Both the position numbers and the translations under genes were made by a program. The notes under the pieces were generated by a model that did no database searches, was not told the origin of the DNA, and saw only the letters and a list, made by a program, of their open reading frames with translations. Source: Lingula anatina (Eukaryota > Animalia > Brachiopoda). Taken from it: a DNA stretch of 64,000 nucleotides. The stretch is from assembly GCA_051362555.1 (NCBI GenBank), contig CM120640.1, forward strand, positions 57,948,788-58,012,787. Direction: 5' to 3'. Shown here piece after piece: positions 1 through 61,478 of the stretch. Position 1 is the first letter of the stretch, and every line of letters begins with the position of its first letter.

Positions 1-613
1 GATAAACAAAACAAGCATAACACACTACATGTGAATTGAATGAGATGCAAAACAAAACAAGCACAGTTGAAAGATTTTGTTTAAAATAGAAAAGCACTAA
101 GTAGTCCACAAAGATCAATTTCTAAACAAGAATTAGAGGATTCTTAATAAATGGTAAGTTTCTTTGGACTTGAATTAAAAAAAGGTTCATGTTTCCACAC
201 ATTTGTGGTTTGTTTTCTGCAGGAAGTAAAACCACATTCTGAGTTTCTTTATCAACTGATAAAGGTTGTCATGAAGAGAAAAAGATGTCAAACCCTAAAC
301 TTTGTAACTAGTTGGTGAAGCACTCAAAAAGTAAAAGTGAAGTTACGTATTAAGTGGTACTACACTGAATGCTGTCAATAATCATCAATGAGCTGCCAGA
401 GATTAATTTTTTAAAGAAAATCCATCATGTCTTTAATCAAATGGAGACAGAAATGATATTTACATAAATAACATAAGAGGTCAAAAAGAAATTATTCAAA
501 TAGGAATTATATGAAAAAATATGATTCATAAATGAAAACAAAATGGGGATGACAGCATTAAGTGTTAAATTAAAGGCAATGGAAAACACAATGATTCTGT
601 AAAATACTCTTAC

Positions 614-3600
614 CTGTTAAATCATTGGCTGCCATCTTCATCTGAGTGTTTTCTGTTTGTAAAGCTCTGTTTTTTTCCAGAAGTAACATCTCTAACGACT
701 TAGGTTTTGCCTGCTCACCACTGCTGGCAGCACTTTCCTCACCCATGTTGGAAAATTCAATTGATTTCAGTATTCTGGAAAAAAATAGATTTTAAACAAA
801 ACTAAGACCCCATTCCCAGAGATTAGATCGATCCAACTAGATCGACCTAACTCCCTGGAGTTTACTCTAAATAGCTGTCAGCCGAGCAGGCACGAAAGTT
901 AATTACCCCCTTACAGCTTGTAGTAGGCGGAACAGACATTTAAGCCGGAATATCTGACAGTAATCTAGTGAGACTCCCCATGGGGATAGATCGATCTAAA
1001 ATCTATGGGAATGTGCCTTAAAACTATGAATTTACTATCATTCCATGTTACACATACTTTTTCACCAGGCAAACATCCCCTATTATTGAATGAAGGCAGA
1101 GCTCCAATTTTTTCTCACTAGTTTTTACCCCAATAGGACATATGATTTATAAATACAATAAAGAAAGAAATGTTACAAGTTCATAAATCATACGTCTGTA
1201 ATTAATTTAATCATTTTTGCTACGTTTGTTTTCATTCTTATGAGTGAATCACTACTTCCTATAAAGAGTCAAATACTTCAATTCATCATAAAGGTATTTG
1301 CTTTAAATTTCATTTTACCCCAATTCTCTCTTGATCTCCTCATAATCCTCTTGAGATTTCATTTTCTCCTCCAAGGTTTTGAAGGCTCTGTTCTTTGCTG
1401 ACAATTCTTCTTCAAGCTTAGCAATCTGAAAATATGTTAATTACTTAATACTTGATCGTTTTCAACAGGTGAGAGAACACTTAATGATGCTTACTAAGTT
1501 GTGGCAAAAAAAAATTAATTAACATTCCAACTTCAATTTATCAAGATAGAAAAATTATCATTTTATATACCTGAGTACTGGTTGAATCTCTCAGTTTGGT
1601 CAAATTATTCTGCAGTCTCTGCACATCTTCCACCAACTGGGAAATCTGGAACCATAACACAACCAGGCTGATATTCAGTTTTTTGGACTAGGGTGGATCA
1701 AGAAAAGTATACTCCTCCCAACACCCTTCCTCCCACTTTTTCACATCTTGAAATACCCTTCAACTTGTAAATGAGTGACTATTTTAATCAAATTTATGAT
1801 GCCTTTTATATAAAATAATTGACACACAGTTATAAAGGTGATATTCTTTGCATATGTAAAAACAGAAAAAACCTTCTTACCTCCTTTTCCTTGGCTGCCA
1901 ATTCAACTTCCAAGCTGGATCTCTTCAATATGTCAATGGCTTGCTCCATGTCAGGTGCCTGCTGCATCTGCTCTGCATGCTGGAGATTTTGGGTGGCAGA
2001 GTCCAACTGCTTTTTAAGCTTCTCTGTCATACGCTCAGCAGCTGCTGCTCTCTGGTGGCAGAATAGAAAACTGAATGGTAACTTATGGCAGATAAATAGG
2101 AAAAAATTTTTTAAATTGTGAAAACACTCAAAACATCATCTTCATAAATAAAATTTATCTCAAAAGCAATGGATTTATTTGTTACTAAACTTGGGTCATT
2201 TGAATTTCAAGCAACCTTTGAAAAGTACATAATATTCAGATCTCACAAACCTCATTAGCTCTTTCTAGATCTGCCATGACCATTTCCGTTTCATCAGATC
2301 TGTAATAAAAAAATGCTAAGTGTCAATTCTAAAGTAAAAAACGTGTCTTGAATCTGATCATTCACAAAATCCTTATCAAAAGGGAAAGACATCTCTTGAC
2401 ATACTAGTGCAAAATTTGTCTTCACAGGCTGAAGAACTTTGTCACCAGGAGTATAAACAAGTCCTTGTTGTGAGTTAGAATTCCAAGTCATTGACAAAAA
2501 AGATCAATACTGAAATCTGATCGATCACTCGTTCATTAAGAAGCGACAGTTACTAAGAGAAGAAGCCTGTAGAGATTCTAAAGAAGCATTTCATGATGCA
2601 CAAAATCTAACAATCCTTCTAGTATCTCACCATTGGTTTTGACAGGGAACTATCCATTAGAACATGATCGATATTTCATAACTCAAGGTGGAGTCAAGCT
2701 GCTGTTGAGTCAATATAAAGCATATATATTGATCACTACAATTGTTGGGGATTCATCCAAAGCTGACAAGGAGATCAATAGAATGATGGCCGATGCATTA
2801 GTCTGATCACCATGAAACTGAATCCAAATTCACAACATGAAAGATAATCACTACCCAAATGACAAATGGTCATATATATCATACTGAGCTGTTATTTCTT
2901 TTTATTTTCCCCATCATTCCTTAGCTTTTTCTTTGTCATTCAATGCATCACTAGATGCATGAATAGCTTTCAGGAACATCCCTTAAAAATGATCATTAAT
3001 TCATCATATCCATACACAGAGATCAATAATGCTAACAGAGGTTCCGTAAAAACCACAGATTCATAAACAAGAGATGCAGACACCTTAGGAGAACACAATG
3101 GTATCAAATATGTCCACCCCTCCAGGCTATCTGGATTAAATGAACCTATAAATCACACCTGGTTTCACAAAGCTGCTGTTTTCTTCAACTGAATGAAAAT
3201 GGCTATTGAACTGAACCCATAACCAATGTTGCCAACTTATTAGTCAACATCACATAGACAGTGATGTTCAACAACCTTTTCAATAAAAAAGCTTCTTTTA
3301 AACTTTTAGAATTTAAAGATGTTAAAGCAATAATGCAATAGTTCATAGATCACCAGTTGCAGTTTTTAAGCAAAAACCTAGCAAGCAAAGTAGATGACAA
3401 GTGAAGTGTGAATGACAAGCACTACACTAATGATCAGGACCAACTGAGAACATGTCTCCATGTTACTAGCAGACACATATATGCAATGATGAATTATTCA
3501 GCACTTGTTTCACTCCACCTCAGCTTGTGCACTAAAAACAAATCACAACCAGATTGATCATTAAAAGGGTCCATTTCTAACAGTTCAGCTTCAAAGCAAA

Positions 3601-6600
3601 AGTTCTAAGAGACAAAAGAATCAAAGTTGATGGAGAAAACAGCCGGTTTCTAGTCAAGCGAGTATTTTTCCAAATCAATATTCTTTACATGGAATGATGT
3701 TCAGGTGTTTGCTTTCTTAGTGCCCAAAAGTCATCAAAATCATTAATTGTCCGAACTTAATAAACTTCTACTCCAAAGCAGAATGGATTTAATAATTCAT
3801 TCAATCTAAACTGAGGGCGTTCAATACAGAGCACAAAGAGGGACTCTAGCTTAAGCCTTGGCTTATTTGTTCTTTTCTCCCCATATTGGAAATCAATAGA
3901 CTCCGTTCAGGCTACCGGTCTTTGATTGATTTTCTTTATTCTTTTTCTGCAGCAGCTGAGATTGCTTGTCCCAAGATTATTGATTACATCGATACTGAAC
4001 CTTTGCTGGGTAAACACAACCAATAATGCTAGATACCCGGGCCCATAGACAACAAACAAGACAGGTGGGCAAAACAAACAATGCCCATGTTTTGTTACTG
4101 CATTATTGATTGACTATTTGACAATTAGTGCCTTTTCTGAAATGCTAAATCACAATCATCTGTTTGCTTTGTTCATGTTCAAACGATGTATGCATTAGTG
4201 CAATCGGTGATTGGAACATAAGCAGCTTGTGTTCTGTACTCTGCATGTTGAATATAGAGAAATGATACAGTTTTCTTCTTTGACCTAAGATTGTAGATTT
4301 CTCCCTGGCGTGAAGTATCACTACAAGAGGTGTTATTTCTCAAGAGTGATCAAAATACTTATGTGTTGGGCTAACATTTCTCTATTAAAATCATTTTTCA
4401 AGTGATGCTTTCTGAGAAGTTAAGAGTGATCAAAACCAGATAAGATACTGATCAAGTTAAGTTGAACTTATGAGATTACTGAATTAGTAGCAGGCTGGGA
4501 AATCCCAGAGAAAAAATGACCCTATTGGTACAGCCAGCTACTAGTATTTTAGAAATCAAATCCAATTAAAAGTCAAACAAAGAACAATAGGGCAATGCTT
4601 TCATGGATTACTAAATTTTTTTTCAAAACCAGAAAATAATGGCATACCACCAAGCCACACAAGTTGCACAATCAAAAGATACATCCAGTGCATAATATGA
4701 TACCAAAGTGAGCTGCAGAGACATTTCGAACTCTACATTTAGGATGTAAATCAGGAATAAAAAAAAATCAATAGTTAACAAGTTTAATATGAATTTAAAA
4801 ATATTTGTATAAAAAAAAACTAAAGAAAATGTAAAAATCTATATAGGTATGCATATCCCTTCATACTTACTTGGCTGTAGTAGTTTCGTCGTACTTGGAC
4901 TTGAGATCAAACAATTCTGACTGGCTGTTGTCCAGAGCTAAAAAATATTATTCATCAAAATATCATCAGATTTAAGTGCATATTTTCAACTGTTCATGCG
5001 ATACCATACATTAATCACAAAATTTAAATTTCACTTAATGCGTTTACTCCACAACCTCTTCAAACTAGAAAAAAAAAATCTATTATAAAAACTTATCAAG
5101 AACATAACTTCAAACTCTTTTCTCCAATCCAAAATAATCTTATGTCATATGAAACAACTCGTCAAAGTTGCCAGATATGCCAGCACACTTATCTCATAAT
5201 CTTACCACTTTGTAAGGTGGATACTTTATGTTCAGCTTCTCCAAGTTTTCTGGCTACATCCATCTGGGTTTCTTGGAGCTGGCGCTCCTTCTCTGCAAAC
5301 AAACGCTGAAGTTCACGTTCTTTCTCCTTTGCTCTAGCCTGTGCTGTACTTTCAACTTTCTCTTCGTGTTCTTTTAACTTTTCTTTCAGCTGCTTGATGG
5401 TAACCTCTGAAAATTTTCAATTTAAAAAATATTAGGATGCATGTCGGTGACATGTACATCAGCAAAGTTTTTTACACAGGTCATTCACACCAAACAAAAC
5501 CATGGTTATTATTTTGAGTCACACTTTGCAAAAATAATAAATTAAAATAGAAAATAAATTACAATAAAACAATTTTGCTAAAATGAACAAGTTTAAGTCT
5601 TTGGTGAAAAATTTAAATACAAACATGAAAGGGAGTTGAGTTTCATGCAGTAAAAATTTCACACTAACCCTGATTTTTTACTTCTGCAAACTCATGGTTG
5701 TACTCATCCAAAGTTTCCCTGAGCTGCTTGTTTTCTATCTCTAGATCCTGGGCCTTATGTGCCCTCTTCTGCAGTAACAGGGCATGCTCAAGTACTTGCA
5801 CTGGATCTAATTTAAGACAAAACATTACAAAATCATTACATTTGCCACAAATATTAAAATGGCAAACACCAAAAGAAATTTGATTAGATGAACAATTCAA
5901 GGAGATAAAGACAGCATGAATTTAAATCACATGAGACAGTAATATCTAAGTTACTTCCCATTTCACATCTTTAGAGTAGGTTATTTTAAAAAGAGACAAA
6001 AAAAAAATTCTAAGTGACCAAATGACAGTAATCAACATCATACAACTGCTTGTCATGCTAACCTGCACAAACGAAAAATTATCATAATTCAACATCTCTG
6101 GATGAAAAAAAAGTGCAGCAATCATCTTTCACCCTACTTTCAAAATTGTGAAAACCAGTACTTGAACACCTTTCACTGTTGTATTCCAAGCAAACAATAA
6201 GTAACTGTGAGTAAGCTAATATTTGACAACAGTTCTGCCCAATTTAGTGTATCTTTAAAACAAAGATATTTGGCTGATGAAAATCATAATTCACTATAGT
6301 AAAACATAAAAGGGTTTGTTTTTGACATCTTTCATCTAAAGAGTTATGGAGTTTTGTTTAAAAATGAACAAGGCATCTTTCTCCTCCATAACGTGAGAAT
6401 TTGGGTGTTTTAAGGTTACAGTGAATAAAAAATTGTATCCCAGCTATGTTTACCTCGAGGGGAAACCTCAAAATCGAACCCAAACCAGTCGTTAAATATT
6501 CTCATAAATCATATTTTTGTCACTATGACTGCTAGGCAAACAAAGGGATTTCAACAGGTCAAAGGTATATGGTTAGTGAAGAAAGGGGGGAAAGCACATA

Positions 6601-9600
6601 AAAAATCCTTTAACTTTTTTAGAATTCATTTGAGGATGCCTCTTCTTTACAGGGCCCATAATAAGTAAATATTAAGCTTTCAATCACCTTCATAAATCAC
6701 TGATTTTCTTCAATTTGTCTTCAAGTTAACAAGATGTAATGTCTATTGTAACAAATTTAGAGAAAAGAATTATACCAACACATCCTACAGACTCGACATC
6801 AGAAGTATCAATCATTAGATTAGCAAAGAATGGATTTTTGCAAATTGCTCAACTCCATTAATTGATTCTCTGGTTCTTTTTTCAGCAGAAAATCAATCAG
6901 AATCATTCCCCTGATGACAGGTCCCTTTGTTCAGAACTCTTTTCCATTGTATGGTTGGCATAAACTAAGATAAACGGGGACATGTTTCTTTACAGCTTTA
7001 AAAAATTGTTACAATACTTATTGATTTGATTTGAAATTCTGCACAGATGTTCGATACACCGTTTGATTTTACATGTTTATCTAACATCAGTCATTGATTA
7101 TCTATTCAATCACATTTGCTGCATGAAAAGAGAACAAAATTGTTGAAAATAACTTTATTTGATAAAATTGATTATTGGCCTGTATTGGTGACCAAACTAT
7201 TATTAGTGATTCAAAAATAAAGCAAATGCCCTGAATCAACAAAAACTAATGATTGATTCTATTTCTGTAAGTTTTATGTATGTAGTAAGATCAATAGGTA
7301 TTGAATATCAATAATTCTGGATCAATACTGCAGTAAATATTATATCAAGTATTCATTATCAAATAATTGGCCACAAATAAAAATTGTCTGCTCCTTTTTT
7401 CAAAAACTTGTATCAAAAAAAAAAAAAAAAAGTAAAATAAATTATTTAATAGGATTGCTCAACTATTTTCTATTATAGGTAATATAAAACTTTCATATAA
7501 GTTGTGCCTAAGGTACCTGGGATATCTATTAGTTTCTTGTAGACTGACAAGAAGGCTGCCTCTGCTGCTTTACTTCTCTTGGACAAGGCATCTATTTCTC
7601 CTTGGAAGCTTTTCAGGAGTGGGGCAACAACTTTGCGAATATCCTTCAAACGTTAAGAGAAAAATATCCTTAGTATACTAGAGAATAATTCATGTTAAAA
7701 CATATCAAACTTGTTTTAAATGAAAAATGATAAAATCAAAACATTAAATAAAAATGAAAAATAAAATTTAATCTGGAGAGGATATTTTGATACTGTCACT
7801 ATGATTAAACACAAGTGTAACAGTTTTACTCTACAGAGACAGGAAAAGCTGGGATATAAATGTTCAAGTCAATTTCCTTTCAATCCCTTGGTGTGAGCAG
7901 TAATCCCATCCAAAAATCTTTTGTTCATCACATTCAAGTACCACTGCCGTATATCATGTGATTGTCATGCTTCCACATTTGAGGTGAACTAAAATTTATG
8001 ACATCCTCTCCAGATACTAGTTGGTTCATCAACATGCAGTTCTTGTGCGATTAAAAATCAGTAAGTAGTATTCACCCAACATCTGACTTAAATCAAAATT
8101 CAAATAGGGACCTTTTTTATGAAGTATAAATGGCATCATGTATGTAGAACACACCACAGGGATGCTTAACTTAAACACGGTTCAATATTCAACTTAAAAA
8201 AACTTTTTAATCACATGGGTGAAGATAACTTTCCACTATAAAACACTAAAATTGTAATGATATCTTAATGTTTTTAAGACGACTATCCCTGAATAAAATC
8301 TATCGCAAAGGACATTAAGGCACACGAAAAAGAACATTAGATCACTAAATTTCCCCAAAAAGCCCATTTGCCAGGGTGTCCCAGTCACCCAGGTGCGACA
8401 AATTCATCACCTGAACGACTTTGATGGAAAAGCATGTCTGAGTCATGCCAAATATTGACCTCATTTTATATTCCAATGAAAACCAAGAATCATTTAATAT
8501 GTAGCAGTTATCATCTATACGTTTCCTTCTTTAACAGTGTCTTCACTAAATTACCCAACATACGTTTACTTCTCATCCCCTCTACTTACTCTGATATCAT
8601 GATCAGATATGTAGTCTTGGCATTTTTGTATTTCACAAACTGGGAAAAAACTTTTCAAAATGATCGAAAATGAATACCTCTGGTGTGTTCTTCTTGAAAT
8701 CTCGACTTTGTTCCACTAGTCTTTTTCTTGATGCGTCACTTTCATCTTGTCGGCTGGCCAAGTCTGTGGCTGAGGTATCTAAATCTTTCTGAAAATAAGA
8801 AAAAAGAAATCAGAAATTCTAGTATCATATCACAGCCCAAAAAAGACCAACATCATACAATTAAGAACATAAGCATTCAATGAGGAACAGATGAAAAATT
8901 TTAAAAAATTCAATAGCTGATTATTAATTAATTTAAATCACACACACTCCTTAATGTATGATTTTGTAAAGCTTTGTCTCTTCTTCTAGACCAATATCTT
9001 TCTACATATTTTTACCTTTCTACATATTTTACCTGAAAATTTACCAATAAATCTATATTTTCCACTTTTTGACAAGCCACTGGTCAGGAGAGTGTTTCCC
9101 AAATGACCATCACTGATCATACTGACCAGAGTTACATCAAACCACTCAAGGTTTGCTAGTCAGCTAGATCTGATAAGTCACACATCAATGCACCAGACAC
9201 ACAGGTGGCGTTTTTCTTTACAAAAATAAATCACCTTTATTTAGCATAATGGCTTCGAGTTATGAGAGACTCACATAATTGAACCTGTAATGATCTAGGG
9301 GCATTCTGTATCACAGTCATCTCGCCTACTTTGTAATTGACTTGGAACTCTGCTTTTAACAAGTCCCCCAAAAATTTCTGATGTAGTCAGTGATAATAGT
9401 TGATTGACTGGTGTATAGCATGCCAATTATCCAAGCAGGGAAAGCTTCATATCACACAAAGGTTACTTTAAGTCTCGTATCTGCTATGTATACCTCTCTT
9501 CTTTACAATAGAATATTATTAATGAATGCCAAAGAGTGCTCTTGAGCAGAGATCAATCAATACAATCCAGGCTAAGCTGTCTCTTATCTCTTTTTATCAG

Positions 9601-10356
9601 AAGGGAAATCAATACAATAGCTTTTTGGCAGATTCAACAGCATGATGATCAGTTCTATGAATTTACATACACAACATAGAATTGGTAGCTTGATACCAAG
9701 TTCTGATAACATACCACTTACAGAGGTGTGTGTTAGTTCTAAACCCACAGTTATCTTAGCAATTGATTGTAAATTCATTCTAGCATAGATTTTGATCTGT
9801 TACATTAATGATACACCCCAAAGGTGAGTCAGATAATATGCAGATGATGTATCTTTCCACAGTGCCAATTTGCATTTTTCTTCATGATTAAGTGAACCTC
9901 AAATCAAGACAATGATAATGTCACACCAGGAAATACCTGTGTTTTGATTTTGTTGTTGTAGTGATAATTTAAAATTCAATGCATGAATGTTACCAGTGAG
10001 AGTGATAAATCGATACTATCCCTATGCCTAGTACAGGCTGGTGCATCATTATGCACTTTCAAAAACACTTTAATGTGCAGAAGAAAAAGAGTTTATTTCA
10101 CTACAACATGCTGATTTATTGGGGCATAACATCTTTAGGAAAAACCCTGCATGACAGGCTGTTTTTATATTCTCACTCACTTTAAGCCCATAGGCATCTC
10201 AGCATTTTACATAAAGTGAAGTCTAAATGTTTCTAATTTCTTAATGTTCTCTAATCAAATTCACTCTTTCCTTCTCTTTTAAAATAAATTGTAATTATGC
10301 CTTTTTTAAAACTTACTTCTATCAAAAATCAATTTCTTTTTTCATTCCATACTAGT

Positions 10357-10412
<56 letters not shown>

Positions 10413-13400
10413 CTTTCAAATGGGAGTGTAAAATAATAAAATCTTGTGGTTATATGGTCAAAAACCCAAATTTTCAAGTTAAAGAGGTTCACTTTACAAA
10501 GGCCATAGAAAAGACAAAATTCAATGTGGAAGAACATCAAACAATTATCTGGGTTGAAAAGACCTATCATTTAGCTCAGACTTATCACAGTCATCATTAG
10601 TCCATGCATGGCTCAGTTATTATGTCCAAAACTGGTTCTCCTATCTGATAGAAAGTCAATGGTCATTAGATAGTTAAGTAACAGGGCCACACTATCATTA
10701 TTTGACTGATACATATTTTATTTCAATTGCTCATTAAGTATGGTGATACATACATTACTTTCTATCAGTGATTACTCTTAAGAAATCTCTTTTGAGTAGC
10801 TGCTGTGTTCTGTTTCACTAAATGATTGTGATGAAGATAGTACATGATCAACATATAGGCTGTCTTTGTACTACACAGATCCATGTAACTGAGATGGTTC
10901 TATATAGAACTAGTGTTCCTCTTGATCATGGAGAAAGATGGGTAGAGGCTTCAGTGAAATTGATAAACATTCCAAATTCTACACACCCCATTGTTCCTCA
11001 TATTACTGGTGGAGTCTACCTTTAAGCCAAACACTTATCTGAAGCCTTTGATCTTCTATGTTGTAAAGGAAACGGGAGGGCTTTGATTGTTGGCAGGATG
11101 TTTAAGACACATTTAATTTCTAATAATTATGCCAAGTTACAGAGAGAAAGTCACATGTGATTAGGTTCTAAAAGTAAAGGTGAACAAGTGACTGAACATG
11201 AAAAAGTATTAACAGAGATGATGTTAAACCATCCACTGTCTAGTCTGAGATAACTTCATAGTGTCAGTTATACACAACAGGCTAGTCAACTTCTTTCACA
11301 GATGAAATAAATTTTGAACAAATAAAAAAAAAATTTAACATTTTCACTTTCTTATATCAAAAGAAAATGCTTGGGGCATGGTTGAAAATTAAATGCAAAG
11401 TATGGATTGGTCCATTCAAAATTATCACAATTGATAAATTTCTTATTTTCAATCAATGCATATCATTTTCCACTGACATTTTCTGCTGACAATTTTTTTT
11501 TTCTTTCTCCAAGTATTGAAAGATTTACATTGGTTTCAGCAAATCTCAAAGATGCCAATAACAGACTGAAACACCATCTATTTGAATATAAAAATCAATG
11601 ACATTAATCAATAATGTACAGAGATAGCATCCTCTTTTTCTGTGCAAAACAAAGCACCAAGATTGATCAGGGAGGATGCTCCTTCTTGCATAGCTACATA
11701 AAATCTTGAATTAGTGTAATTGCAGAAAGAACCCTTTCAATCATAAAACAGATGAAAATCAATGAGTTTTAGTCAGCAAATGGCTTATGCTTTCTATTTC
11801 CATAATTAAAGCTCCTATCATTGATCAATAATTGATTTGAATGTTATTAATATTGCCATCATTTTCCAAAGCTTCAACAACTCTGTCACACTAGGATGCA
11901 TGCATGCAGGCAGATCAAGCTGCTTTCTATTGAATATTGATCCTCGGAGCAACTACAGAGCAAAACTTTCTCAGGTTTTCCACCCAAGTTGCTGACAGGC
12001 TTCAATATCTAGTATGACATGAGCGTGCCTGGTTTTGGTTTTGCAGTAGAAATTTGGGTCAGAGTAAGCTTTGATAATAAATAACTTTTGGAAGACAATC
12101 AAGAGCTCATGTCCTATTACAGACTCAGTCAGAGCTGGCATCAATATAACTCGATAGTGCTCAACTAAATAACTGAATCTAATTGGAATTTCCTCCAGCA
12201 TGCTACACTACACAAATGTCTAAAGGGCGATATCTCACTCTGACAGAGTGCCAGGGTTGGTGCCAGATAGTTCAACCCTATGTGGTGAATCATTCTTTTG
12301 ATCTTACTCAATGTGTTCCTACAGATGAAAAAATCATGTCTTCGAAGGAGAAGACTGAGAAGTTTTTATCTTCCAAAATATCCATCTACAGATTTATGAT
12401 GACAATAATCTGTATCTACCAAGCATCATTTCTCTTGGCATTTGTTTTATGACTTTATTCATTGGCCTTTTGACATCAATCGACAGGACTGGTTTTATCA
12501 GTAATGTCACTGGTGCATGGATCTTTACCTTTCACCAGACTTAATTTATGGTGTTTTCATCCCTATCGAGTGAAAACATCACGGCAATCAGGACTATCTC
12601 AGCGTAACGCTCAGGTGAGCAAGCAGGGAAAGTGGTGACCCGGGTTCACATGATTGCGCACAAACAAACGGGGATGACAGGACCAGGAGATAAATCAACC
12701 AAGCCTCCAAGTCATCCTGATCAATAGCATATTTTTAGAGTTGCACGCCAAGCTCCAGGCTATAATTTTTGAAAGGGACTGAAGATTGATGCACCCACCA
12801 TTGAATAGTGAAAACAATTTAGGCCCTATCTGGAATTTGGTGATAGTCACGAAGAAAACGAGTTTGTCTAGGTTCAGTGTCGGGTGATCAACCAACCGTA
12901 CTGATGATTCTTTCTGTGCCTCACTCATTTTTGTCAAAAGGAATACACATTTAACCCCATTTTCATTTTTTAACTGCTGGCCCCGAACTGATAACAATCC
13001 ATAACATTTCATCAACAACTGTAGGCACCAGACACCAATCATTCCTAGTTATCTCCGGAATCTCCCTGCCTGAAGTATGCAGTTAATGACTTGCTACATG
13101 TATAGAATTCAAACACAACCAATATCGCCATCAACCTATCAATTTTCAATAAATGTTGACTAGTTTCACAGGACAATGGTTAATCATAAGTGGGTCAGGA
13201 CAGGCTGGTACAAGTTACAGTTACGACTTTACAGCCACAAGGAAATTGATAGGGGTGTTGAATGTATTGGTAAAAAGGAAAATACATATGACATGATCTA
13301 AGTGATATGGTAATAAGAGACATGAATGTATATTTCAGGTTTAGCTGACAAATTATGTGGGAGTTTTTCCTTACCACAATGTCCGGAATAAAACTTGTTT

Positions 13401-16371
13401 AATAAGTTGTGTTTCTATTTCAGTGAAGGGTTTTTATTAGCATAATCTTTTGCAAATCAAATAAATCCATTAAATACAAGCCAATCCTTCTAATGAAAAA
13501 AGACACATAATAAACAAAGCTATTTTATCACTTCATGTCAACACTTTCAACAAGTCTGTTATCAAATGAAAGTTTTTAACCAAATCACCTGTAACTGGAG
13601 TTTAACTTAAATCACTTCATTTCAAGGGTAATACAACTCCTGATCCATATCTTAGGTAACTAATATTTACAGGAACAAGGTTCTTGTGTTGATACTTCCT
13701 TTTCTGAATAGGTTATCCATCAGCCAAAAACTCCCCAAATTATTACCAAATGTTATCTTAATACATCATCAAAGAGCAATTTGGAGAGAAGTATGGTCCT
13801 AAATGGAGACTCTGCCAGACAGAATAATGACAGCTTCGCACTGATAAGCAATGATATATGCATAAAAGTGGAAACAGCCAATTGTTCTGCAGCTGCAATG
13901 GGTTGAAAGGCAGACTGACTGACAAGTTTCCATGAAGTTGCAACAGAGTTTAATGAAAATCAATAGTCACCAAATGTGTGTCATCTTTCTGGATCAATAC
14001 TACAGGATTCAATACTAAAGAGAAGTCAATTACAATTGAGTGGGGGCCCCAAAACCAACCAAGCTGCAGCAGCTGGTTTGGGTTAATCAGACAGAATTGT
14101 AATAAGAGACCAAAACTCATTTTATTTCCCAGGGCTTTCAATGATTGATCACCCCACTGATCGTATAGCCTTTGTTGATCAGCAGGAAAATCAATATCTA
14201 GCAATGTGCATTTGTTACAGATGACAGGTGGAAAGATGATCAGTAGCATTAGTCAGACTTGTTAGAAAGATGTGCGCTGTGTGCGAGCCCGTATGCAATA
14301 TAGATATATTGATTAAATTTGGGTTTACCTACGTGATCACTCTTTGTTCAATAAACCCCATCTGAAAGTCGATCATCAGCTGCAGTTAAGTTGTATGATT
14401 GTTAACCAGAACAAGAATCAATACCTATTAAATAAGATTTGATGTGCTAACAGATGGGAAGACAATCAAATCTATGTATTTCCTCATTCTAATCCTTTTT
14501 CCAACTCACGAAGTATCAATGTAAGTGTATTGATTATAAAGCAATTCAATTTGCCTGAGTTTTCTATTCAATATATGTTTGTGCTGATTTTCCCACATTG
14601 CATGGTGTGTGCTTCCAAGCCCGCCTTTCCCTCCAGGCAGTATCTACCATTATCATCATAGCTATGGGAACCAATCCATTTCTACCTCAATAAATCAATC
14701 AACATGCTGGGTTGGAGCCAGGTTGGCAATTTCCATGATGAAAGGCATTGATTTTCTTTGTGATCCCAATAGTTTCGACAGTGAATGGTATCTAATTGCA
14801 CTTGCACCATATCTTCAGGGATTTGAAATTTGTAGAGGATCAAATTCAATAGTGGCTATATTGGCACCAATCAATAGGCTTATCAGAGTCCGTGTTCCCC
14901 TTCCCCTGGTTACTTCCTCTGTGTGTTTGTGCATTTAGGACCTGTTCAAACTCATCAATCAATACAATGCTATTACCAGCTGTATCATCCTCTCCTAGGC
15001 CTGAATCAAGAACCTACCTCTAGCACTAAAAGTAATGGGGATCAATACATTTAACCAATAAAAACCATCACAAAATTCAGTTGCTTTATCTTCATTTAGT
15101 CCTCTGGTTCATTGCTTTCATGCTCGATGGTAATTTCAAAGACAAAATAATCAATATAGCATTATCACTGAAACACAATATTGACTAACATTGTAATGTG
15201 CAGTCCATTATCAAATTGCTCACTGCTAAAACTTCAAGAGTAGAGAATAACAAGCATTAATGTTGTTTTTGTTTCCTACCTTTATTTTTGTTTTAATGAA
15301 AAGATGCAGGTCTACATGTCATGGAAACTGTTTTTTTTTTTTTTTTAATTTTTTTCATTTCAAAATATCAGTGACAACTCATCTTTATTTTAGTAAATAT
15401 ATATCACAACATCTAGGGGTAGTTTAGGGTAAAAATGTTATCTAAGTCATTTTTTTAAATTCTTCACTTTACCAATGAAACAACTTGATTCAACTTGATA
15501 TTTTATTTAACATTTTCAGAAAACTCAAGAAATTTACACAAAATCAACATAATTTAAACATGTACTAATGTAAGTCATATTTGAATAAAATGCAGTACAT
15601 CATTGCAGTAATAAAGTATAATGATATTCAGAAAGTGACAATGTACACTTAAATAAAAAAATCCTGCTTAAAATACATTGTTACCAAAAGCCATACCCTC
15701 TATACCCTCTCGCAAAGAAACTTAGAAGGAAGAAAAACTATGAAAGTTCTATAAACAAATTCCCCACGTTAAATCGTAAACAAGACGTTCGCTTGATACC
15801 AGTCAGTAAGGGCCCATTAGTCTAGGCTAAGATACACCGCCGTTAAGTAATATCTTGGAACCGGTATTCCAGCCACATCATCAATATGTGACAATCATTC
15901 GGTCTACACACTGTAACAAATGACTGCTGTGAAGGGTCGGCTCGAATTTCGCTGCTACGTTGTCCATTCATTCTCAAACTTCGCCGCTGTTCGAATTTGC
16001 CACCAAAAACTTTTCAAACTTGTGCAAACAAAACTTTGCAGAAGTCCTTCAAATGTGATGGAGTTGTTTCAAAGAAAACAATTTACACAATAACTATCTG
16101 CATATTACAGGTTTTCGTTAGTTGGAGTGCCAGCGTAGCACTCGGCCATATTGATTATTCCCTGATACTTTATCAATCTGATCGGAACAGTTTTAAAACA
16201 AAGACAACGAAGCCTTAAAAGTATGATCGACGTAACTTCTACGAAAAAACAAACTCTTGCACTTTTTGTATACATCTCTGATGGTTTAAATTCAATCTTA
16301 CTCACCTGAAGTGTCTGTAAATCAAACTCTTTCCAATACTGACACATCGACTGCACATTTAATGCAGCCAT
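614..16371 (-). CDS. CUX1: Cut-like homeobox 1 / protein CASP, shared N-terminal coiled-coil exons; the gene continues beyond the left edge
   Basis: Coding exons (minus strand): 16306-16371, 8678-8788, 7517-7643, 5669-5806, 5206-5406, 4871-4937, 2251-2299, 1881-2051, 1571-1645, 1319-1425, 614-774. All introns are GT-AG and phase-compatible. The spliced protein reads [101 protein letters not shown]...[25 protein letters not shown]...[27 protein letters not shown], closely matching the CASP/CUX1 N-terminus. CUT repeats and homeodomain are not in the window. Confidence 0.93.
803..1020. mobile_element. Small palindromic MITE in a CUX1/CASP intron
   Basis: Left end TAAGACCCCATTCCCAGAGATTAGATCGATC resembles the reverse complement of the right end, TAAGGCACATTCCCATAGATTTTAGATCGATC. 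The inner arms (...CTGTCAG / CTGACAG...) are also inverted. Flanks are TAA/TTAA-like. Confidence 0.7.
10359..10412. repeat. (AAT)18 microsatellite
   Basis: Read directly from the sequence. Confidence 0.95.
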
Positions 16372-16636
16372 CTTGGTGAACGGGCATCAGAGCTAATCGA
16401 TTGGTCACGTGACAAAATACGATCGAAAATAGCCTCCAAATCTTGTGTTTACCTCCAGCTTTTCCTCTAAACTCGCCTGTTGGTGTGTTGAGAAGCTCTT
16501 AGGACGACCCGAATGCAGTTAAACAGTTGAGGCGTGTAATTATGCATTTGAATGAGAGTTTACCCGTGCATTAATTTGATCAATGCGATATAGTTTAGCG
16601 GGAGTTTCAAGAGTAACACTTGTTGATGAAACCAAT
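16372..16636. promoter_or_regulatory. Bidirectional promoter shared by CUX1/CASP and NUP88
   Basis: Only 265 bp separate the divergent ATGs, and the region retains CpG. It contains the palindromic E-box GTCACGTGAC (16404-16413), an inverted CCAAT (ATTGG 16400-16404) and ATCGAT (16396-16401). Confidence 0.8.
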
Positions 16637-19600
16637 ATGGCGGCCTCCAGTAACATTGAGGACTGGCGAAATTTATTGAAAAAACATCCGTTATTTGAGT
16701 TGATAGCTTCCAAAAATACGGAGTCCAGGAATGACAATGATTCAAAAGACATACTGACAGTGAAGGATGGCGAAATTTTTATATGGAATGCAGAAGACAG
16801 CAACATTCTCACGACGAATTTGAAAAACCTTGCTCTTAACAACGACAGAACATCTGCGTATCAGGTATTTATTACTGATTGGCTAGTTTTAGTCGTTTTC
16901 TCGGTCGCTACAATTTTATTTGTTATTATTTGTTATAATATTGATTTTTAATGGGAAAATGATATCAGTGGCGGCTTTAGTAGACTTGTCCAACCTGAGT
17001 TTAGAATATGACGTGAGAAGGTAAATTACCTTTATTAATGTTAACTGTCTCACCAGAATATAATGTTATCGGTTTGAAAGAAATTGTTGATTTACCGCAT
17101 GCAACATTCTCTGGCAGTTTTTGCCATTAGCATGATGTTTTCACAGAGGCTGGTAGTGTACTGTCGACTCAAGCCTTAGTTTTCCAGAATTTCTATTTAA
17201 AGTATCTCTTGTCAAGTAGTCTTACCTTAGCTTTATCATAGCAGCAGCAGCTGTATCTTACCTGATATTTATTAATGACAGACGCATCCTTCTATATTAG
17301 GTTATGTATGGGAAGTTCTACCGTGCATAGGGATTTTCATAGGCAAGACTTTTAGAATGTAATACCTTATCTGAAGAAAGAAGAAAATGTTAAGGTTGAT
17401 GTATAAGATTTGTAAAGGTATCTGCCAAATATTTATTGTGGTAATTTCATAAGCTGATGCTCTTTCACAAGTGCAATTGATATAATACATTTCAGGCATT
17501 GCTTTGCACCAATCCACCCGTTTTTGATGTACAAAGGATTGAATTCAGCTTGACTGGCCACCACTTGGCTTTGATAGGAGAAAGAGGAGTAACAGTAGTG
17601 CAAATGCCAAGGAGATGGGGAAAGCATGCAGATTTTGAAGGGGGGAAGGAGAAAGTCAATTCACGGTAAGCATGTTAAAATAAGGTTGTATAAGAATTTC
17701 ATATCATGGCAGTATGATATCCTGGTTAAATAATTGTTTATTACTTTTAAAATCCATTATTCAAACTTGATTTCACTTTTAGGACTGTCAACATTGGTGA
17801 ACGATTTTTTGCAAGCAGTGGAAATATCAAGCTATTACAGGCAGCCTGGCACCCAGGAAGTGAAACAGACACACATCTTGTACTTTTAACATCTGATGAT
17901 TGCCTTAGGTACTTTTCTCTTTAGTTCTTTGAAAGACTAGATGTGGTTCAAAAAGAATGAGAACAGATTTTGAGCAGAACTTAACTCCTCCAGTGGGATT
18001 TCCCAAGGAGATACTTTATGTAAACAGAATTAATCAAATATTAGATATCTTTTTACTTGTGATACTGTGTTATTAGTCAGAAATCCTACATCATTGTTTA
18101 AATATCTCAGTTGACTACAAAATTGAAAGTTTTTTTGTAGTTAATGATTTTAATGTTATCTAAAGTATTTTTCATTGTGCATTTTTCTTACAGGATATTC
18201 AATATTGCAGAACCTTATGAGGCAGAACAAACTTTTGCATTATCTGATTACTATGATCATTCACTTGCGGGTGGCAAAGCATCAATAATGGCAGCACTTG
18301 GAGAGTTGGCTGTGGCTTTTGATTTTGGACCAGCTGTTGAACTGAAGTCTAAAGGAACAAAAGAACAGAAAGAAATAGCTTGGCCTGTTTATCTCCTTCG
18401 TGGAAATGGAGAAGTGTATGCTGTTTTAACTAGTGCAGGTTCAAAAAGGTATTATGGTGATACATGAACAGTTGTTTTATTGTCTGTGTTTAAGTACTTT
18501 GCAGCCTCAAACAACTTATTGTTTCACATATGAGTAGAATAAATCAGTAGCACAAAGGCTTTCAAAATTTTGCATCTAGACTACTTAAGCAGTTTACTGT
18601 TTTGGTGTTGTTTTAGGTTGAAATCTAAGGTAGTGGGTCCTTTGACCATGCATCCTCCTGCTGAGGACAACTATGGTACAGATGCCTGCTCTCTCTTGTG
18701 CATCCACTCCACTCCACCAGTACTAGTTATAGCTACAAGTGATGGTAATTTGTACCACTGTGTGGTTCTCAATAAGGGCGAGGATGATGATTCTTTAGTA
18801 AGTTCATTTACAGACATATTGTGGGCAATTTTATTAAACTAGTGTGACACCAATTATTAGCAGAATTGTGAATCAAGTTTTTTTTATATCTGTTAAAATG
18901 TGAATAAAACATGGAAAGGCTCACTTTTTTTCTGGTGTAGGCAGTTTTGAGAGAAACTAATAGACATTGCTCAATTAACCTTGCTGAAACATACTAATGC
19001 CTGCAATGAGAGATAATCAGATCACATGTCATCTAATACAATAAAACAATTTATTATTGATATTTGTAGTCTGAGGTATCTTGGACTGGGACTGAAGCCA
19101 GCACACAATATGATACACTGTCAGAAACATCACTGTATGTGTATGAGAGAGTGGAACTGGAGCTGTCACTAACTACTGTTGCTGTGGAAACTGATGAGCT
19201 GATTGAAGATGATTTTACTTGCCCAATAAGGCTGCACACAGGTGAGTTGTTGAAAAAATCCTTGTGGTGGCAAAGGTTTGGGAAAAAAACATCAAAGATC
19301 ACATTTAAAAAACAGTATAGTAAATTGAGTACCTTTATTCCTGACCATTTTTAATGTATTGCTTTGATGTGAATGTCTGTGTATTTCATGTGCTTTTGAG
19401 ATGAAAAGTTTTGATATGAATTTCAGATCCAAGTACAAAAGACAGATATCATTGTTTGCACAGTGCAGGGGTACATGCAGTGGTGTTACCTTGGTTAAAC
19501 AGACTAGAAGATTTTACAGAAAGTAAGTATCAGTCAGTCAAACTATTGAAATGTATCATCTTGCAAAGGGGATAAATTTAGGCATTTCATAGGGGAATTT

Positions 19601-24740: not shown

Positions 24741-27700
24741 CTGAAGCTTTGAAAATCCGTTGTTCAAATTAATCGTAATTTTACAATCAAATTCTATTTA
24801 GTTTATGCAAAGATTTTTCTAATTTACTAATATATTTATTTTTTCTTTTTCCGCACCATTCTCTACCTTCCAGACGCTAGGCAGGTAAGTGATCATTATG
24901 TTTACATTAGACACCAGGGAGTGTCCGCCAGCCGGGGGCCAAAAACAATTTCCTGTTCAGCTGCTTTTGATTTGTTCAGTCCATACGTGTCCAAAAAGAT
25001 TCCACATTTAATCTGTCCTTTAATATGCATACATTGAGACAAAAACGGAGGTTAACTTCCGGGTTGTTATTCATCCATCGGCTAATCACGTCAGAATCGG
25101 TTTCGGTTATTAACAATGTGTCAATGTGTCATTGCCTGATGTGGCAGCTAGTTGGGGTCTGCCTAAAAAAGAATTACTTCAAGCAGAAAAAATAATATTT
25201 AAATTCAGGGGCAACTAGGGCTTAAACTTCGCAGCACACATGAACAGTAGTAGATCTACCACACCTGGGTCTTTTGTTTTTTGACAACTGGTCATTCGTC
25301 ATCGAAGTGCTTGTTCAAGACTACAAATTGATATCTACTAGTACTACCAGTGGTTTCATTTGTAACGTTCCCAAAATTCATGGTTTTCTGTCTGTGCTTA
25401 CATACTCTGGTTAGCCTCTGAGTCTCTAACGAGAACAATGGCTGTTTCTCACCCCTGACAATATCCTGCATGGCCATGGGAAACTAATGTGAAAGTTTTT
25501 AAAACTCTGTATGAGGCTAGTTTGGATAGACATTTTTATTAAGTGTTGTCAGAAACTTAACATTCAGGATGATGAAGTAACATCACTCCCAACCCTAGGT
25601 CTTCAACTGAAGAATAAACTGTGATGTTTGCTACTTAAATTTACATTGATATAATAAGTTTTGAAGTTATTGAAGATGATCCATCTGAGATGTTTTCAGA
25701 CATCAAATCTGTAATATTTCTGTATAATACTCTGCCAATTGTGTAGATATAGATTAAGCTCGTGATTATCTAGGCTAAATATTGCTTTATGGTATGATGC
25801 AAGTTGCAGGACTCGAGTTTTTTTTTTTTTTTTCACTACCTGCCAATAAAAGCATGGAGATATAGGTCGTGAGATTATTGAAAATAAAGTATTACATCTG
25901 ATGAATGATCTGTTCAAACTTGAGCCTGAGCAGAAATACACTATGTACCATGATTTTGTTGGCTAATGATCCTCCTAGGATGGTCAAGATGGGCATTGGC
26001 ACAAAAATGGTTATCCTCATATAAATGCAAATTAATGCCGACTGTAAACCAAATTTATTAAGATAAGTATAGACATTGGCTCAGATATTATTATCTATCC
26101 ATTAATTATATCTAGAAAAGCAAACATTTATTTTGGATTTCTTTAATGTCTGCTGTTGGCCATCTTGACTCTTACTAAGAAAATAGCTGTAAGTTTTATC
26201 CAAAAAGTCTAATGTTATTCTAATTTGGCTAAGGATATTATAAAATGTTGTACTTTTTTTTTTTTTGCCAAATATAGCATAGGATTAGTTCTAATTTTTG
26301 ATTGGGGGAAATAACCCTGCTATTTGGCTTACAGTAAAGATTCTTCATCCAAGAGTAAATATAGTGATGAGTGGTGTTATATAACTCAACAATGTTGACA
26401 TCTGGCATACTTTCATGTCCAGAATTAATCATACATTTGTGTTGCATGGAGAGTAGTTTCATATAATTAGTGTCTCAGTCAGACTATAGTCACTGTGTAC
26501 TAGTACTGAGATGACTGAGAGTAGAAACTCAAATTATGTTTCAATAATTTATTTGCCACAGTGATTTTGGTGGCTCATAACTTCCTTGTATATGTTGGAG
26601 ATGAGGATATATATATATATATAGAAATATAAGTTTGCATTCCTGTTTCAAAGTGAACAATTACTGGGATGCATAACCTTAACAATATAAAGAAACTTAA
26701 AAGGAAGGAAAATATATAGTTATTGTTCCAATGGCTAGTTATTAACTTAGTTAATGTTGTTTATGAGGGGTTTAATTCTTAGAAAATTCAAAGTTCCCAC
26801 TGTGAAAGTGATGTTTTTGTGGTTTCAGTTTGTTAACCCAGAGCAGCCAGGCTATGTGGGATTTGCCAACCTCCCCAATCAAGTTCACAGAAAGTCTGTG
26901 AAGAAGGGTTTTGAGTTTACACTCATGGTAGTAGGTGAGTAGCCAGGTTATTATGTTATTGAATTTTGGTGCACTTGTATTTGTAAAAATATATTTAAAA
27001 GTAGAACTTCTCTGAATTTTATTTACAAGCAAGTATTCATTACCTGTAGTCTACTATGTAACTACTTGATGTGGATTCACACTTGTATTGGTTTTTTAAA
27101 AGTGGTATTGATTTATTAAAAGTGTGCATAAGAACTATGTTGCACAATTTGACTCGTGTACCAATTGTATTTTAACACAAAGAAATAAGCCAGCAAAAAT
27201 ACAGACATTTATTAAATAAAATTTTGTGTTTGGGAGGCAGGTGTGTACTATTACCTTAACCCTCCTTTGGCAAAAGATGACCTATCACTGTAACATGATC
27301 TGGGTGCAGTTAGCAAGCTCTTACAATTATTGAGAAGGCCTCAACCCTATGAAATCATTAACTATTGTTGTCCAAGATCCAGAAAAAAGGGGACAAAAGC
27401 TGATGATTGCTATTTCTTGTGATGCGGTTACACAATAAACCAATCTTGTTGTCAGTTGGGGACAGCATTTACTGTTGACATATACTGTGCTCGTTACAAT
27501 GAATGGGTTCTTTTGTTGTTTCATGTAATGTAGTTTGTTGTTAGAATGGATTTATTTAAAAAGAGCAATATTATCTGCAAACATACCAGTAGATTTTGAT
27601 AGAAGATGAAGTGAGAAGATATAGATGCAAGTAGCAACAGTATTTATTCGCATTCTTAAAGCAGCCCTTTCATACTTAAGATAGAGATCTTGGTCATATC

Positions 27701-29236
27701 CTATAAATAGTAGCCTTTTTATTAGAGGATTGTGTGTAAAAGGTGTTATATCATACTTGTTATGGTAAGCGATGTATGACCATCACATAACTTAGGTCTC
27801 CCATTTACATGTGGAATCAGTTGTGCATTGAATTATTCACAGAACACAGATTCTTCTACGATTTCTCATTGTATTAAAAAATTAGATTATTTACCCTCTG
27901 CTTTAAGCAGTTAGGGCCACCGAGAATTACTTTGAAAAACTCAACTGGAGCCTTTCACAATTATTCTTAATGTTTTTACAGTAATAATCAAAAGAAAAAA
28001 AGTTAACTCATGTTTTGAATTTTATGGGGGGGGGGGGGTGGAGCATTATGTCAACTTGACTGTGAAGATGTTAAAATTTCAAATTGATCTCCAATTTACT
28101 TTAATGCAAATGTCATTGTTTACACCAGACTTCATTTATTGCAATTAGAACGTAAAAAAAACTTCTACAAAGGCTTGCACTAAATTTTTATATATAAATA
28201 TCTTTGGATATGGATTAAGGTACTAGGGTGATTTTTTTTCCTCTCGCTCATCTTGTTCACTGTTTGTTTTAGAAAAAATGTTAGCAAATGCATGCTTCTA
28301 TAAGGACTTGAAGGAAAATTTCTAAACCTCAAAGCAGATTTGAGTCATTAATAGACACATTTTTTTCTGTTTAGTCATGTCTTGTCATTTATCAGATGGG
28401 TGGCATGAAGCATTTTAAATCAATAAATCATAATCATTTAATGATTATAATTAGGTCAATTAGTATAAATCTTTCTACTTGCTAAGTTGAAGTGATTGAT
28501 GATGATTTTAATGCAACGAGATGTTAAATGGAAAACAAATTGGATTAATTGCATTTGATTCAGTTAATTATACTTCATAGTATCTTTTGTAGGAATGTTC
28601 ACAAGGAAAATCTATATATTTTAATCAAACGTGTACTTATCTTACAGGGATATCCCAATCAGTTGAATAAGTAATAAAAACTTTGCTCAGTGCGAAAAAA
28701 CATGAAATGTTTAAAAGTTGTTAGGGATTTTAGCCATAAAAAGAATATTTTCTATGACTACATTTATTCCTGTGGCCTGTTTGTCCCCTTCCTTTGTCTT
28801 AATAAGCATCCGAGTTTAACATCAGACAAAAATTATGTTAATGTTATCAGTCTAACCACATGTGATATTGACGGGTGACCTGGAAGTGGCAGGCTTTGTT
28901 TGGCATTCCTCACTGTTTTATATCAGTCTCAGACATATGGGGACAGTTAATTGGCTGTGTACTGTATGGGTCTGATATTACAAGACAAACTTGTTTTTTT
29001 CCCCTCAGACTTGAGAAATAAACATATCATTGTGGGAAAAAGGTCAATTATCTGAGATTTGTATATTTGTCGACATTAAATTTGGTTATTAAGAGAACTT
29101 TTTTGCTTAGATTTTTTTCTTTATTATTTATTTTCTGTGGTACATATCAGTTGTAGAAGAAAAACAAAGGTGTTTACATATAACCTTGTTTGACCTTCAG
29201 ATGGATGCTTTTTAACTTTATTCACTCTTTTTCTTT

Positions 29237-29282
<46 letters not shown>

Positions 29283-32200
29283 ATTTTTGGGTCCAACCGA
29301 GCCTCTTCTTTGATCTTAGGAGACTTTGTCAACTTAGATTCTGTAAATGATTGCTAAGAAATATGGCCATCTTGTCATGAAAACCGAGGCTTTGTTGGAA
29401 CAGTAGTGCTATATGTCAAAATAATATTGGTTGGTCATGACGTATGCATATGATATAGTATTTTCACATAGACCTGCATCTTGTTTATTTTTATGGATAG
29501 TAAGTACATTTCAAAGAAATGTATATGAGATCATGTGAGAAATAGTACCTGGATTATATGATCTTGGAAGGTGGTCCAAATGACTTTTGACATGGTATCT
29601 GAAATACTTGATTGCTATCTGATCCTAATGCTGTGTGTGGTTTGTGTTAGAATCTCACCAGCAGTAATATTGACACCACACTGTACAGGATGTCTAGACT
29701 GCTTTTTCCAGTCCCTGTTTTCTGTCTGTCTATTATGGATTTTACTAGTAATAGAAACAGTCCTTCACAACTTAAACTTTTCATATATATTTTAAATATA
29801 AGCATAAAATTTAAATTGCTTAACATTTTAGCAAAGGGTGTCATTACAGTGAAAAAAAAAAATACAGTTGGTATCAATTCGAATTAGAGTAACAGAATTA
29901 TCCAAAAAATATGAACTTTATACTGATGAAGTTAGAATTTGATTTGCCTTCCAGTTGCAGAGGTCAAGCCAAAATTAAAAATAAGGATGCATAATATTGA
30001 TACTTTTTGTTTGATTGTTATTTATTTATTTATTTTATTTTATTTATTTATTTTTTTTATTTATTTTATTTTATTTATTTATTTATTTATTTTTTTGTTT
30101 GTTTGTTTGTTTACAGGAGAATCTGGTCTAGGTAAATCAACCCTTGTAAACAGCCTATTCCTGACAGACCTTTACCCAGAGAGACATGTACCTGGGGCTG
30201 CAGGTGAGTATTATACATATATGAAACTAGTTAGTCTAGACATTTGTCAGGGTAGCTCAATTTTCCTTATTAAACTGTCAACAAATAAATAAATAAATGG
30301 GCCATCACCAAAATATAACTGGTTCTAAGTTACCCCATTTCTGACCTATCCTGAAAATTTTATCAAAATTCATCGTTAACTTTTCAAGTTGGGCTATTAA
30401 CTATCAAACCAACAGTGGCAAAAAACTCAACCTCCTTGGTGGAGGTAATAATTGTCAGGCAATGTTGATAGATTTATTTCTGTCTTGATAGCAAATAATA
30501 TGATGGTCAATATTTGTTCTCGGGTTAATAATCATTTTAAACATTAAAATGTGTCAAATTTGACTGTGTATCTTTTTCATAAGAAGTAAATGAAATACAT
30601 ATTTTCATGTGCAGTTATATAACAAATACAAATGTTACACTTTGAGTTGATAATAAAGTTGCAACCAATGCACAGAATTGCTTCTTTTCATGAAAATGCA
30701 CTATTGATTTCTTTTCCTCAGAGAAAATCAAGCAGACTGTGAAAATTGATGCTTCCACAGTAGAGATAGAGGAGCGGGGTGTGAAGCTCAGACTGACTGT
30801 AGTGGACACACCAGGGTTTGGGGATGCTCTGAACTGTGAAGATTGGTAAGATATTTCCCTAGTGTCAACTTCACCATATGTTAGAAACTCATTTGGGATG
30901 CCTTTAAGGTATCCTATCGGGTTTTTTTTTTTTTTTCACCAAGTCAAATTTTCAATGGAAAAAAGTGAATTTCTACAACTGAAAAATCATTGCATGGCCC
31001 ATCTCTGCATTTGGATTTGATGTTTATACCATTTTGATTAATTAATCTAGTTCTATATGCCTTCCTGTGTCTAAAGGAAACATCAAAATACTTTTATTGA
31101 AGGGGTTTTATTTTCAAGATCTGAATTGGGAAAGATAAGTAACTTTATAGGATATGTAGTCATAAAAAATATGATTTTGGGATATTTTCAGATTTATATA
31201 GTATACCTTAAAATGTTTTAGTTATGATGTAAAAATCTGTGTTTGTCACCTTTTTCTCGAAATTTTAAACCAGCTTAGAAAAAGTGTGTGACATAAAATC
31301 TAAATCAAAGGTAAATTCTATTTTGTGAATACATCTATAATTCTTTAAGATAAATCCTTGGACATATTCTATGTATATATATATATATCATTCAAATGCA
31401 TTCCACAACTATTTTATATAACCTATTTTATTTCCAGTTATAAACAAGTCATAGCATATATAGATTCACAGTTCGAAAGATACCTCCAAGATGAAATGGG
31501 ACTCAATAGGAGAAATATTGTGGACAACAGAGTTCATAGTTGTTTTTACTTCATTAACCCTGCAGGACATGGGTAAGATTTTGTGAGCACTTGTATTTAG
31601 ATTTGCTTTATCATTTTATCATTTTGCATTATTTTATACATAATGCATCAGTTTTAGCCTATTTTTGGCAAATAGTGGAAAAATTAAGTTCTGACCATTT
31701 CACATATTTCAAATGTATTGCTTGTAAGTAAATACTCAGTGGTATGTGTTATTTATTACATCTGGGGAATTACCAATGATACCATCTGACAGCTCTTTGC
31801 AAAATTCTTTCTGGTATTTTAAAAGATAAAGAATGAATGAAGAACAGAAATGGTGATAGTGTAAAAAGTAAAATTGGACCCATTGCATATAAATATAATT
31901 CACTTTTCATGTTCAGATTAAAACCTCTGGACATTGTGTTCATGAAAGCTATCCACCACAAGGTGAACATCGTGCCAGTCATTGCTAAGGCAGACACCCT
32001 AACAAGGGAGGAGGTGTTCAAACTCAAGTCCAAGGTAGAAATTGCCGACAACAGAATAATCCAAATATAAGTGAAGGGCTTAACTGTAGTTAAGATACTG
32101 AGAGGATAAATTCACTTGCATATATTTATTTGAAATATATCTCTTTTGTTACTTTCATACAATATATTACATATTTTGAAAAAATTATACACATTTCTAA

Positions 32201-60374: not shown

Positions 60375-60454
<80 letters not shown>

Positions 60455-61392: not shown

Positions 61393-61478
<86 letters not shown>

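Follow-up and report, generated by a model that had tools for sequence, protein, structure and literature searches.

The window analyzed here, a stretch of 64,000 nt of Lingula anatina DNA, contains at its left end the 5′ part of a fused CASP/CUX locus. One exon was a 100% match to both L. anatina CASP (P0001) and homeobox cut-like 1 (P0002 and P0003), and the three proteins were mapped to the same 5′ exons of a minus-strand gene that runs leftward from 16371 and off the end of the window, which covers P0001, P0002, and P0003 only to residue about 430–440. On this strand, the coding part of exon 1 lies at 16306..16371 (22 codons), intron 1 at 8789..16305 (7517 bp, with the splice joint 8788/16306), and exon 2, the first exon common to both 5′ starts of the gene, at 8677..8788, as placed by protein mapping and RNA joints. 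Further coiled-coil exons shared by CASP and Cux were located within 594..7642 by protein mapping, and the CUT and homeobox exons fall outside the window, to its left. The initial annotation had surmised that the gene makes a homeodomain isoform in addition to Golgi CASP, and such isoforms are indeed annotated: P0002 and P0003 carry a homeodomain preceded by two to three CUT domains (three in P0003, for which the closest solved structure was Cux-2).

NUP88 (Pfam Nup88) is head-to-head with exon 1 of cux/CASP, approximately 265 bp away. The head-to-head promoter of the two genes, at 16372–16636, is short and CpG-rich (observed/expected 1.05) and holds one ATCGAT, one ATCAAT, and one CACGTG box. 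Two septin genes (Pfam Septin) were found on the plus strand at 26750–36500 and 57900–63100, and a 146-bp unit repeated 8.8 times in tandem at 54430–55709 was masked from the background counts. At 18446–19068, a low-depth X10 contig skips one NUP88 exon.

An alternative 5′ exon was located inside intron 1, on the minus strand (9033..9106, reaching at least 9106), and is spliced to exon 2 from a donor at 9033. In the raw RNA reads of X16, the joint between exon 1 and exon 2 was present in 69 reads, and the joint between donor 9033 and exon 2 was present in 5 reads at 5 starts, together with 8 loose ends. The latter joint was not seen in X19, where just 4 reads joined exon 1 to exon 2, and was carried by contigs of X8 and X10, which come from another study; these are spliced, RNA-like contigs, the depth of which cannot rank parts of the gene. 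The joint listings (3 and 14 entries) contain none that leads from exon 1 into the internal exon, which is more in keeping with a first exon than with a cassette. Vertebrate CUX1 has alternative first exons (1A and 1B), the second of which lies in intron 1 and is spliced to the shared exon 2. That vertebrate exon is coding, whereas the Lingula exon with donor 9033 has no in-frame ATG.

An 18-bp tandem duplication at 8998–9034 provides two possible donors, 9016 and 9033, and the choice between them changes the reading frame. The database models P0002 and P0003 begin in the internal exon but use donor 9016, which was shown by none of the reads or contigs examined, so that the N-terminus given in the database for the Lingula Cux isoforms depends on a donor unseen in these reads. 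With donor 9033, none of the 10 ATGs in 9033–9620 is in frame into exon 2, and the next in-frame methionine is residue 196. The internal transcript would thus encode an N-terminally shortened Cux from which most of the coiled coil at that end is missing. Joining of the internal exon to the homeobox exons is predicted by the models P0002 and P0003, which use donor 9016.

The region 13959..15155 of intron 1 contained 15 sites (11 ATCAAT and 4 ATTGAT), or 12.5/kb. Chance expectation was 1.3–1.9 copies under Markov models of orders 0–3 trained on the remaining window, and ATCAAT/ATTGAT ranked first of 2080 hexamers under all four orders. With an order-1 model trained on the region itself, 2.5 copies were expected and the word ranked second. 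ATCAAT was also the top hexamer of the 2080 across the whole of cux/CASP intron 1. In order-3 simulations, none of 200 simulated 64-kb windows reached 15 sites per 1.2 kb (maximum, 10) or 42 sites per 7.5 kb (maximum, 23). Site density in the region was higher than the average of the three large introns of the gene (P = 0.001, uncorrected for the cluster having been picked). Neither a tandem repeat nor an Rfam family was found in this region, its repeat pairs were only short (13–31 nt) and chance-like, and its two longest open frames had no Pfam match (0 of 2). A tandem repeat, a structured RNA, and a hidden open reading frame were accordingly rejected as readings of the region, in which RNA read cover was almost absent. 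Judged against the window, the region has the make-up of a homotypic binding-site cluster, with many above-chance copies of one site in non-repetitive DNA. The initial annotation was accurate for all 15 positions, for their location in intron 1 of the Cut gene, for the excess over base composition (against the within-window background), for the frequent extension to ATCAATA (10 of 15 sites), and for the otherwise non-repetitive sequence.

Four more clusters were observed in the gene. Two of them are in intron 1, at 11430..11941 (10 sites, 19.5/kb) and at 9552..9767 (4 sites, just upstream of the internal 5′ exon on the transcribed strand), and the others are in intron 3, at 6807..7326 (10 sites, 19.2/kb), and in intron 6, at 3892..4110 (4 sites). 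The region 13959–15155 had been described as the largest cluster, which held for the number of sites but not for density, because the clusters at 6807–7326 and 11430–11941 are denser (approximately 19/kb). The suggestion that arrays are distributed along the gene was borne out by these five clusters, two of which (introns 3 and 6) lie downstream of the internal 5′ exon and three (intron 1) upstream of it. Intron 1 had 41 ATCAAT/ATTGAT sites, intron 3 (5807–7516) had 10, and intron 6 (2299–4869, 2.6 kb) had 11 ATCAAT and 3 ATCGAT in all. Together, the three introns had 62 sites in 11.8 kb (4.3–5.9/kb), compared with approximately 22 expected from their own dinucleotide content, and the remaining window had 50 sites compared with 72 expected in the same way. 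These 50 sites correspond to 1.06/kb over 47 kb in which GC and CpG content are similar to those of the introns. The NUP88 gene had 8 sites in 6.7 kb (1.2/kb), close to the value of approximately 1 per kb previously estimated by eye, and the seven smaller cux/CASP introns (2.7 kb in total) had no ATCAAT. Within the 64-kb window, the arrays were confined to the cux gene.

Sequence variation was scored where it was available. None of 32 variants in 3001–16305 (from the 40 listed of 435) fell within ATCRAT sites, which represent 2.7% of the bases, and fewer than one was expected. Likewise, none of 26 intronic differences in X12, from related organism B (among the 40 listed of 77), fell in these sites, with fewer than one expected. 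X12 covered no part of the cluster, and X11, from the same organism, gave only three short, non-colinear matches. In the intron pieces available for comparison, divergence from a second Lingula species was about 10–14%.

Among the 18 one-letter neighbors of ATCAAT, ATCGAT was the most co-enriched in the cux introns (4 vs. 1.1), followed by ATCACT at 2.1-times, and the consensus is therefore ATCRAT, of the CUT class. ATCRAT is the CUX1 ChIP motif (PMC5499738, PMC3770232) and ATCAAT is bound by HNF6/Onecut (PMC1976457). The three large introns had 62 ATCAAT and 4 ATCGAT, and the scarcity of the latter is in line with CpG depletion in these introns (observed/expected 0.23–0.29). A purine at position −1 was found at 48 of the 62 sites in the introns and at 24 of the 50 in the background (P = 0.002), and RATCAATA was found at 29 of 62 vs. 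12 of 50 (P = 0.02). The intron sites were present in either orientation (38:24, P = 0.10). This flank preference (purine before, A after) matches the worm CUT consensus AATCGATA (10.1101/2021.12.10.472091). The co-enrichment and the flanks agree with the motif class originally proposed. Onecut and Cux as readers cannot be separated by sequence alone, and a search for literature on methylation effects on ATCGAT binding yielded nothing usable.

In a scan of metagenome contigs, 118 relatives were confirmed, and the best 80 were kept, which resulted in 73 loci in 49 groups. After 11 groups with less than 2 kb of non-coding DNA were left out, 38 were compared with dinucleotide shuffles, with overlapping copies collapsed. 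ATCRAT reached z ≥ 3 in 5 of the 38 outside cux loci: L058 (39 vs. 10.5 expected), L070 (37 vs. 13.3), L065 (29 vs. 10.8), L050 (28 vs. 13.0), and L017 (34 vs. 19.8). The remaining 33 were below this threshold, including a rotifer-like 20-kb cux locus (z = 1.9) and L063, an 11-kb intronic locus; many of the 33 were short contigs of one clitellate-like group. In 19 pooled clitellate-like contigs, ATCAAT occurred 54 times vs. 66 expected and ATCGAT occurred 17 times vs. 9 expected. ATCGAT alone was in excess in L049, L054, and L067, the last with seven copies in approximately 110 bp upstream of exon 2 (positions 1–120). Also upstream of exon 2, L050 had 11 copies of ATTGAT at 900–1110, some as ATTG runs.

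L058, L065, and L070 were three divergent members of one clade in a quick tree, with a long stem and an open position among spiralians, so the five positive loci represent at most three independent outside lineages. In this clade, ATCGAT was the top one-letter neighbor (15 vs. 4), and the flanks leaned to A on both sides. L058 and L065 have their CUT exons on the same contig, and their shared-exon introns had 57 sites in 12.6 kb vs. 11 sites in 5.4 kb of flanks (P = 0.007). Under self-trained order-3 models, the enrichment in L065 and L050 weakened to P of approximately 0.05. No intron DNA of the outside cux loci was found to align to the window, which indicates that motif content is kept without alignment in the cux loci showing enrichment. 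The recurrence of the motif in related cux introns, to which the initial annotation had looked, was thus seen as enrichment at 5 of 38 loci, and the other 33 did not show it at z ≥ 3. L003 has an intronless CASP open frame (9998–11965) that groups with tunicate CASP, and its flanks had no ATCRAT excess.

A similar organization is described for the C. elegans locus cone-1/ceh-44. According to Leyva-Diaz et al. (PMC11789633), CUT sites in introns 2–3 of this locus are bound by CEH-48 and CEH-38 and drive neuronal reporters, their deletion lowers ceh-44, and the ceh-44 transcript starts internally. Those authors surmise autoregulation, propose that the fusion is locked by CUT sites in its introns, and call for this to be tested beyond the worm. 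On the features given there, both loci are fused CASP/CUX loci with CUT-class sites in introns between shared 5′ exons and with an upstream promoter that a housekeeping neighbor would share, and the putative internal start of the Lingula locus would, like that of the worm, have its first usable ATG several exons downstream. The Lingula locus differs in its 62 sites, which form five clusters across 11.8 kb and are nearly all ATCAAT where the worm ChIP consensus is AATCGATA, and in a putative internal start with its own 5′ exon inside intron 1; its neighbor is the head-to-head NUP88, whereas the worm neighbor is an operon partner. On the features compared, the Lingula arrays, seen here through sequence and transcripts, provisionally resemble a maintenance element of the cone-1/ceh-44 type.

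Other systems were compared as well. Intron 1 of ric-4 has 9 CUT sites in 431 bp, similar to the Lingula clusters of 19/kb, but the ric-4 target is an effector gene and the Lingula target is a CUT gene (10.1101/2021.12.10.472091). The reported intron-1 autoregulatory cluster of YY1 places a transcription factor gene under its own binding sites, as proposed here, for an unrelated factor (PMC2743690). Positive Cut autoregulation has been modeled in Drosophila neurons (10.64898/2026.06.19.733455). In human cells, less than 4% of open-chromatin ATCRAT sites carry a CUX1 peak (PMC5499738). No published report of the Lingula arrays was found in a literature search that covered few subscription papers.

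The arrays are real and non-random, and from their motif content they are best read as CUT-class feedback arrays. Strict autoregulation had been proposed initially, and feedback by the CUT class is the safer wording because the proteins bound in the worm, CEH-48 and CEH-38, are of the ONECUT type. We consider it probable, with moderate confidence, that the ATCRAT arrays are enhancers bound by Onecut and Cux that would maintain the homeobox transcript, probably in neurons, via the second 5′ exon. Counting against this reading are the 33 outside loci without enrichment, the weaker P values of L065 and L050 under self-trained models, the small share of human ATCRAT sites with a CUX1 peak, the use of donor 9016 in P0002 and P0003, and the lack of the donor-9033 joint in X19. 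The housekeeping promoter shared with NUP88 would result in broad CASP expression, and CUT-class proteins (Onecut and Cux) would occupy the arrays in the introns and activate the internal start. The internal homeobox transcript would then be sustained, likely in neurons, and Cux would subsequently join a feedback loop.

The arrays bear on the question of what keeps a homeobox factor and a Golgi tether in a common locus in different animals. More tentatively, the ATCRAT arrays might be an ancient design, extending from nematodes to spiralians, brachiopods included, without alignable sequence, that drives a non-coding first exon and a short Cux and locks the golgin and the homeobox gene together; arrays inside CASP introns would hold both in one locus. 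The Lingula locus and the five others add sequence evidence from outside nematodes to the locked-fusion proposal (PMC11789633), and the worth of the finding lies in cross-phylum evidence on why the CASP–CUX fusion persists. Counting ATCRAT in the shared-exon introns is a cheap test that runs on any annotated genome.

Maintenance by Onecut and Cux was weighed against four other readings. Cux itself could act as a repressor, with many weak sites sensing Cux dose and damping its own transcription in a negative feedback, which we judge rather unlikely. The motif evidence is shared with the maintenance reading, and many dispersed sites would fit graded sensing, but SELEX data give a spacing of 12 for CUX dimers, and a start-to-start spacing of 12 was found in none of 70 gaps. 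CUX1 is a dose-sensitive ‘analog’ regulator that acts through multiple sites (PMC5499738), and some of its targets are repressed and others activated (PMC3770232); the worm locus, as the single ortholog put to the test, is nevertheless a case of positive maintenance with ONECUT-type proteins bound. The 62-to-4 predominance of the HNF6/Onecut site ATCAAT also argues against Cux as the reader, although CpG depletion explains this ratio equally well.

Maintenance by CUT-class proteins also has to be compared with the possibility, in our view very unlikely, that large introns of neural or developmental genes are generally enriched in these genomes, or that the pattern is a neutral compositional quirk, with no special role at the cux locus. 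Downstream of the first septin gene, and thus outside the cux gene, five ATTGAT/ATCAAT sites cluster at 39308–39638. Slippage of (ATTG)n accounts for some copies, namely 3 overlapping site pairs in the cux introns and a run of 4 in L050, and the pan-neuronal genes of C. elegans frequently contain CUT sites (10.1101/2021.12.10.472091). However, the neighboring 47 kb of the same GC and CpG content showed no comparable density, the counts stayed high after overlaps were collapsed, and the same ATCAAT word was the top word in the cux introns of unrelated animals.

It is highly improbable that the match to the CUT class is coincidental and that the sites are instead read by PBX/Hox or by some other factor recognizing an ATCA core. 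Readers of the PBX/Exd–Hox type, with MEIS sites nearby, had been offered as an alternative in the initial annotation, and TGATTGAT was indeed 4.5-times over expectation in the three large introns. The PBX-type ATCAATCA, however, was found at 8 of the 62 sites in the introns and at 4 of the 50 in the background (P = 0.54), and TGACAG (MEIS) was at 1.35-times expectation in the three large introns vs. 1.49-times in the remaining window. A PBX/MEIS (TALE) element was rejected on these grounds, and the ATCGAT co-enrichment and the A/G..A flanks fit the CUT class instead. Outside ATCRAT sites, TGATCA occurred 15 times in 11.8 kb of the large introns (1.27/kb) vs. 7 times in 46 kb elsewhere (0.15/kb), which would suit another factor. 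This excess (approximately 8-fold) indicates that a second or looser motif is present in the cux introns, perhaps weak CUT sites or the sites of a partner factor.

Finally, it is extremely unlikely that the motif acts on the pre-mRNA (as AUUGAU) as a splicing signal for the choice between CASP and Cux: sense ATTGAT was in excess in 13959–15155 (11:4), the three introns (38:24), L058 (20:12), and L065 (17:7), and the worm locus is also splicing-controlled (PMC11789633), but the bias was not significant in the cluster (P = 0.12) or in the three introns (P = 0.10), was absent in L070 (16:16) and L050 (12:14), and involves a motif whose palindromic form ATCGAT is co-enriched in arrays located far 5′ of the isoform branch.

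An excess of GATCGA in the cux gene was dropped as evidence because it comes partly from an inverted-repeat element near 810–1010. This element, of approximately 200 bp, has GATCGATC-rich inverted ends, lies in the last shared intron, and looks like a MITE.
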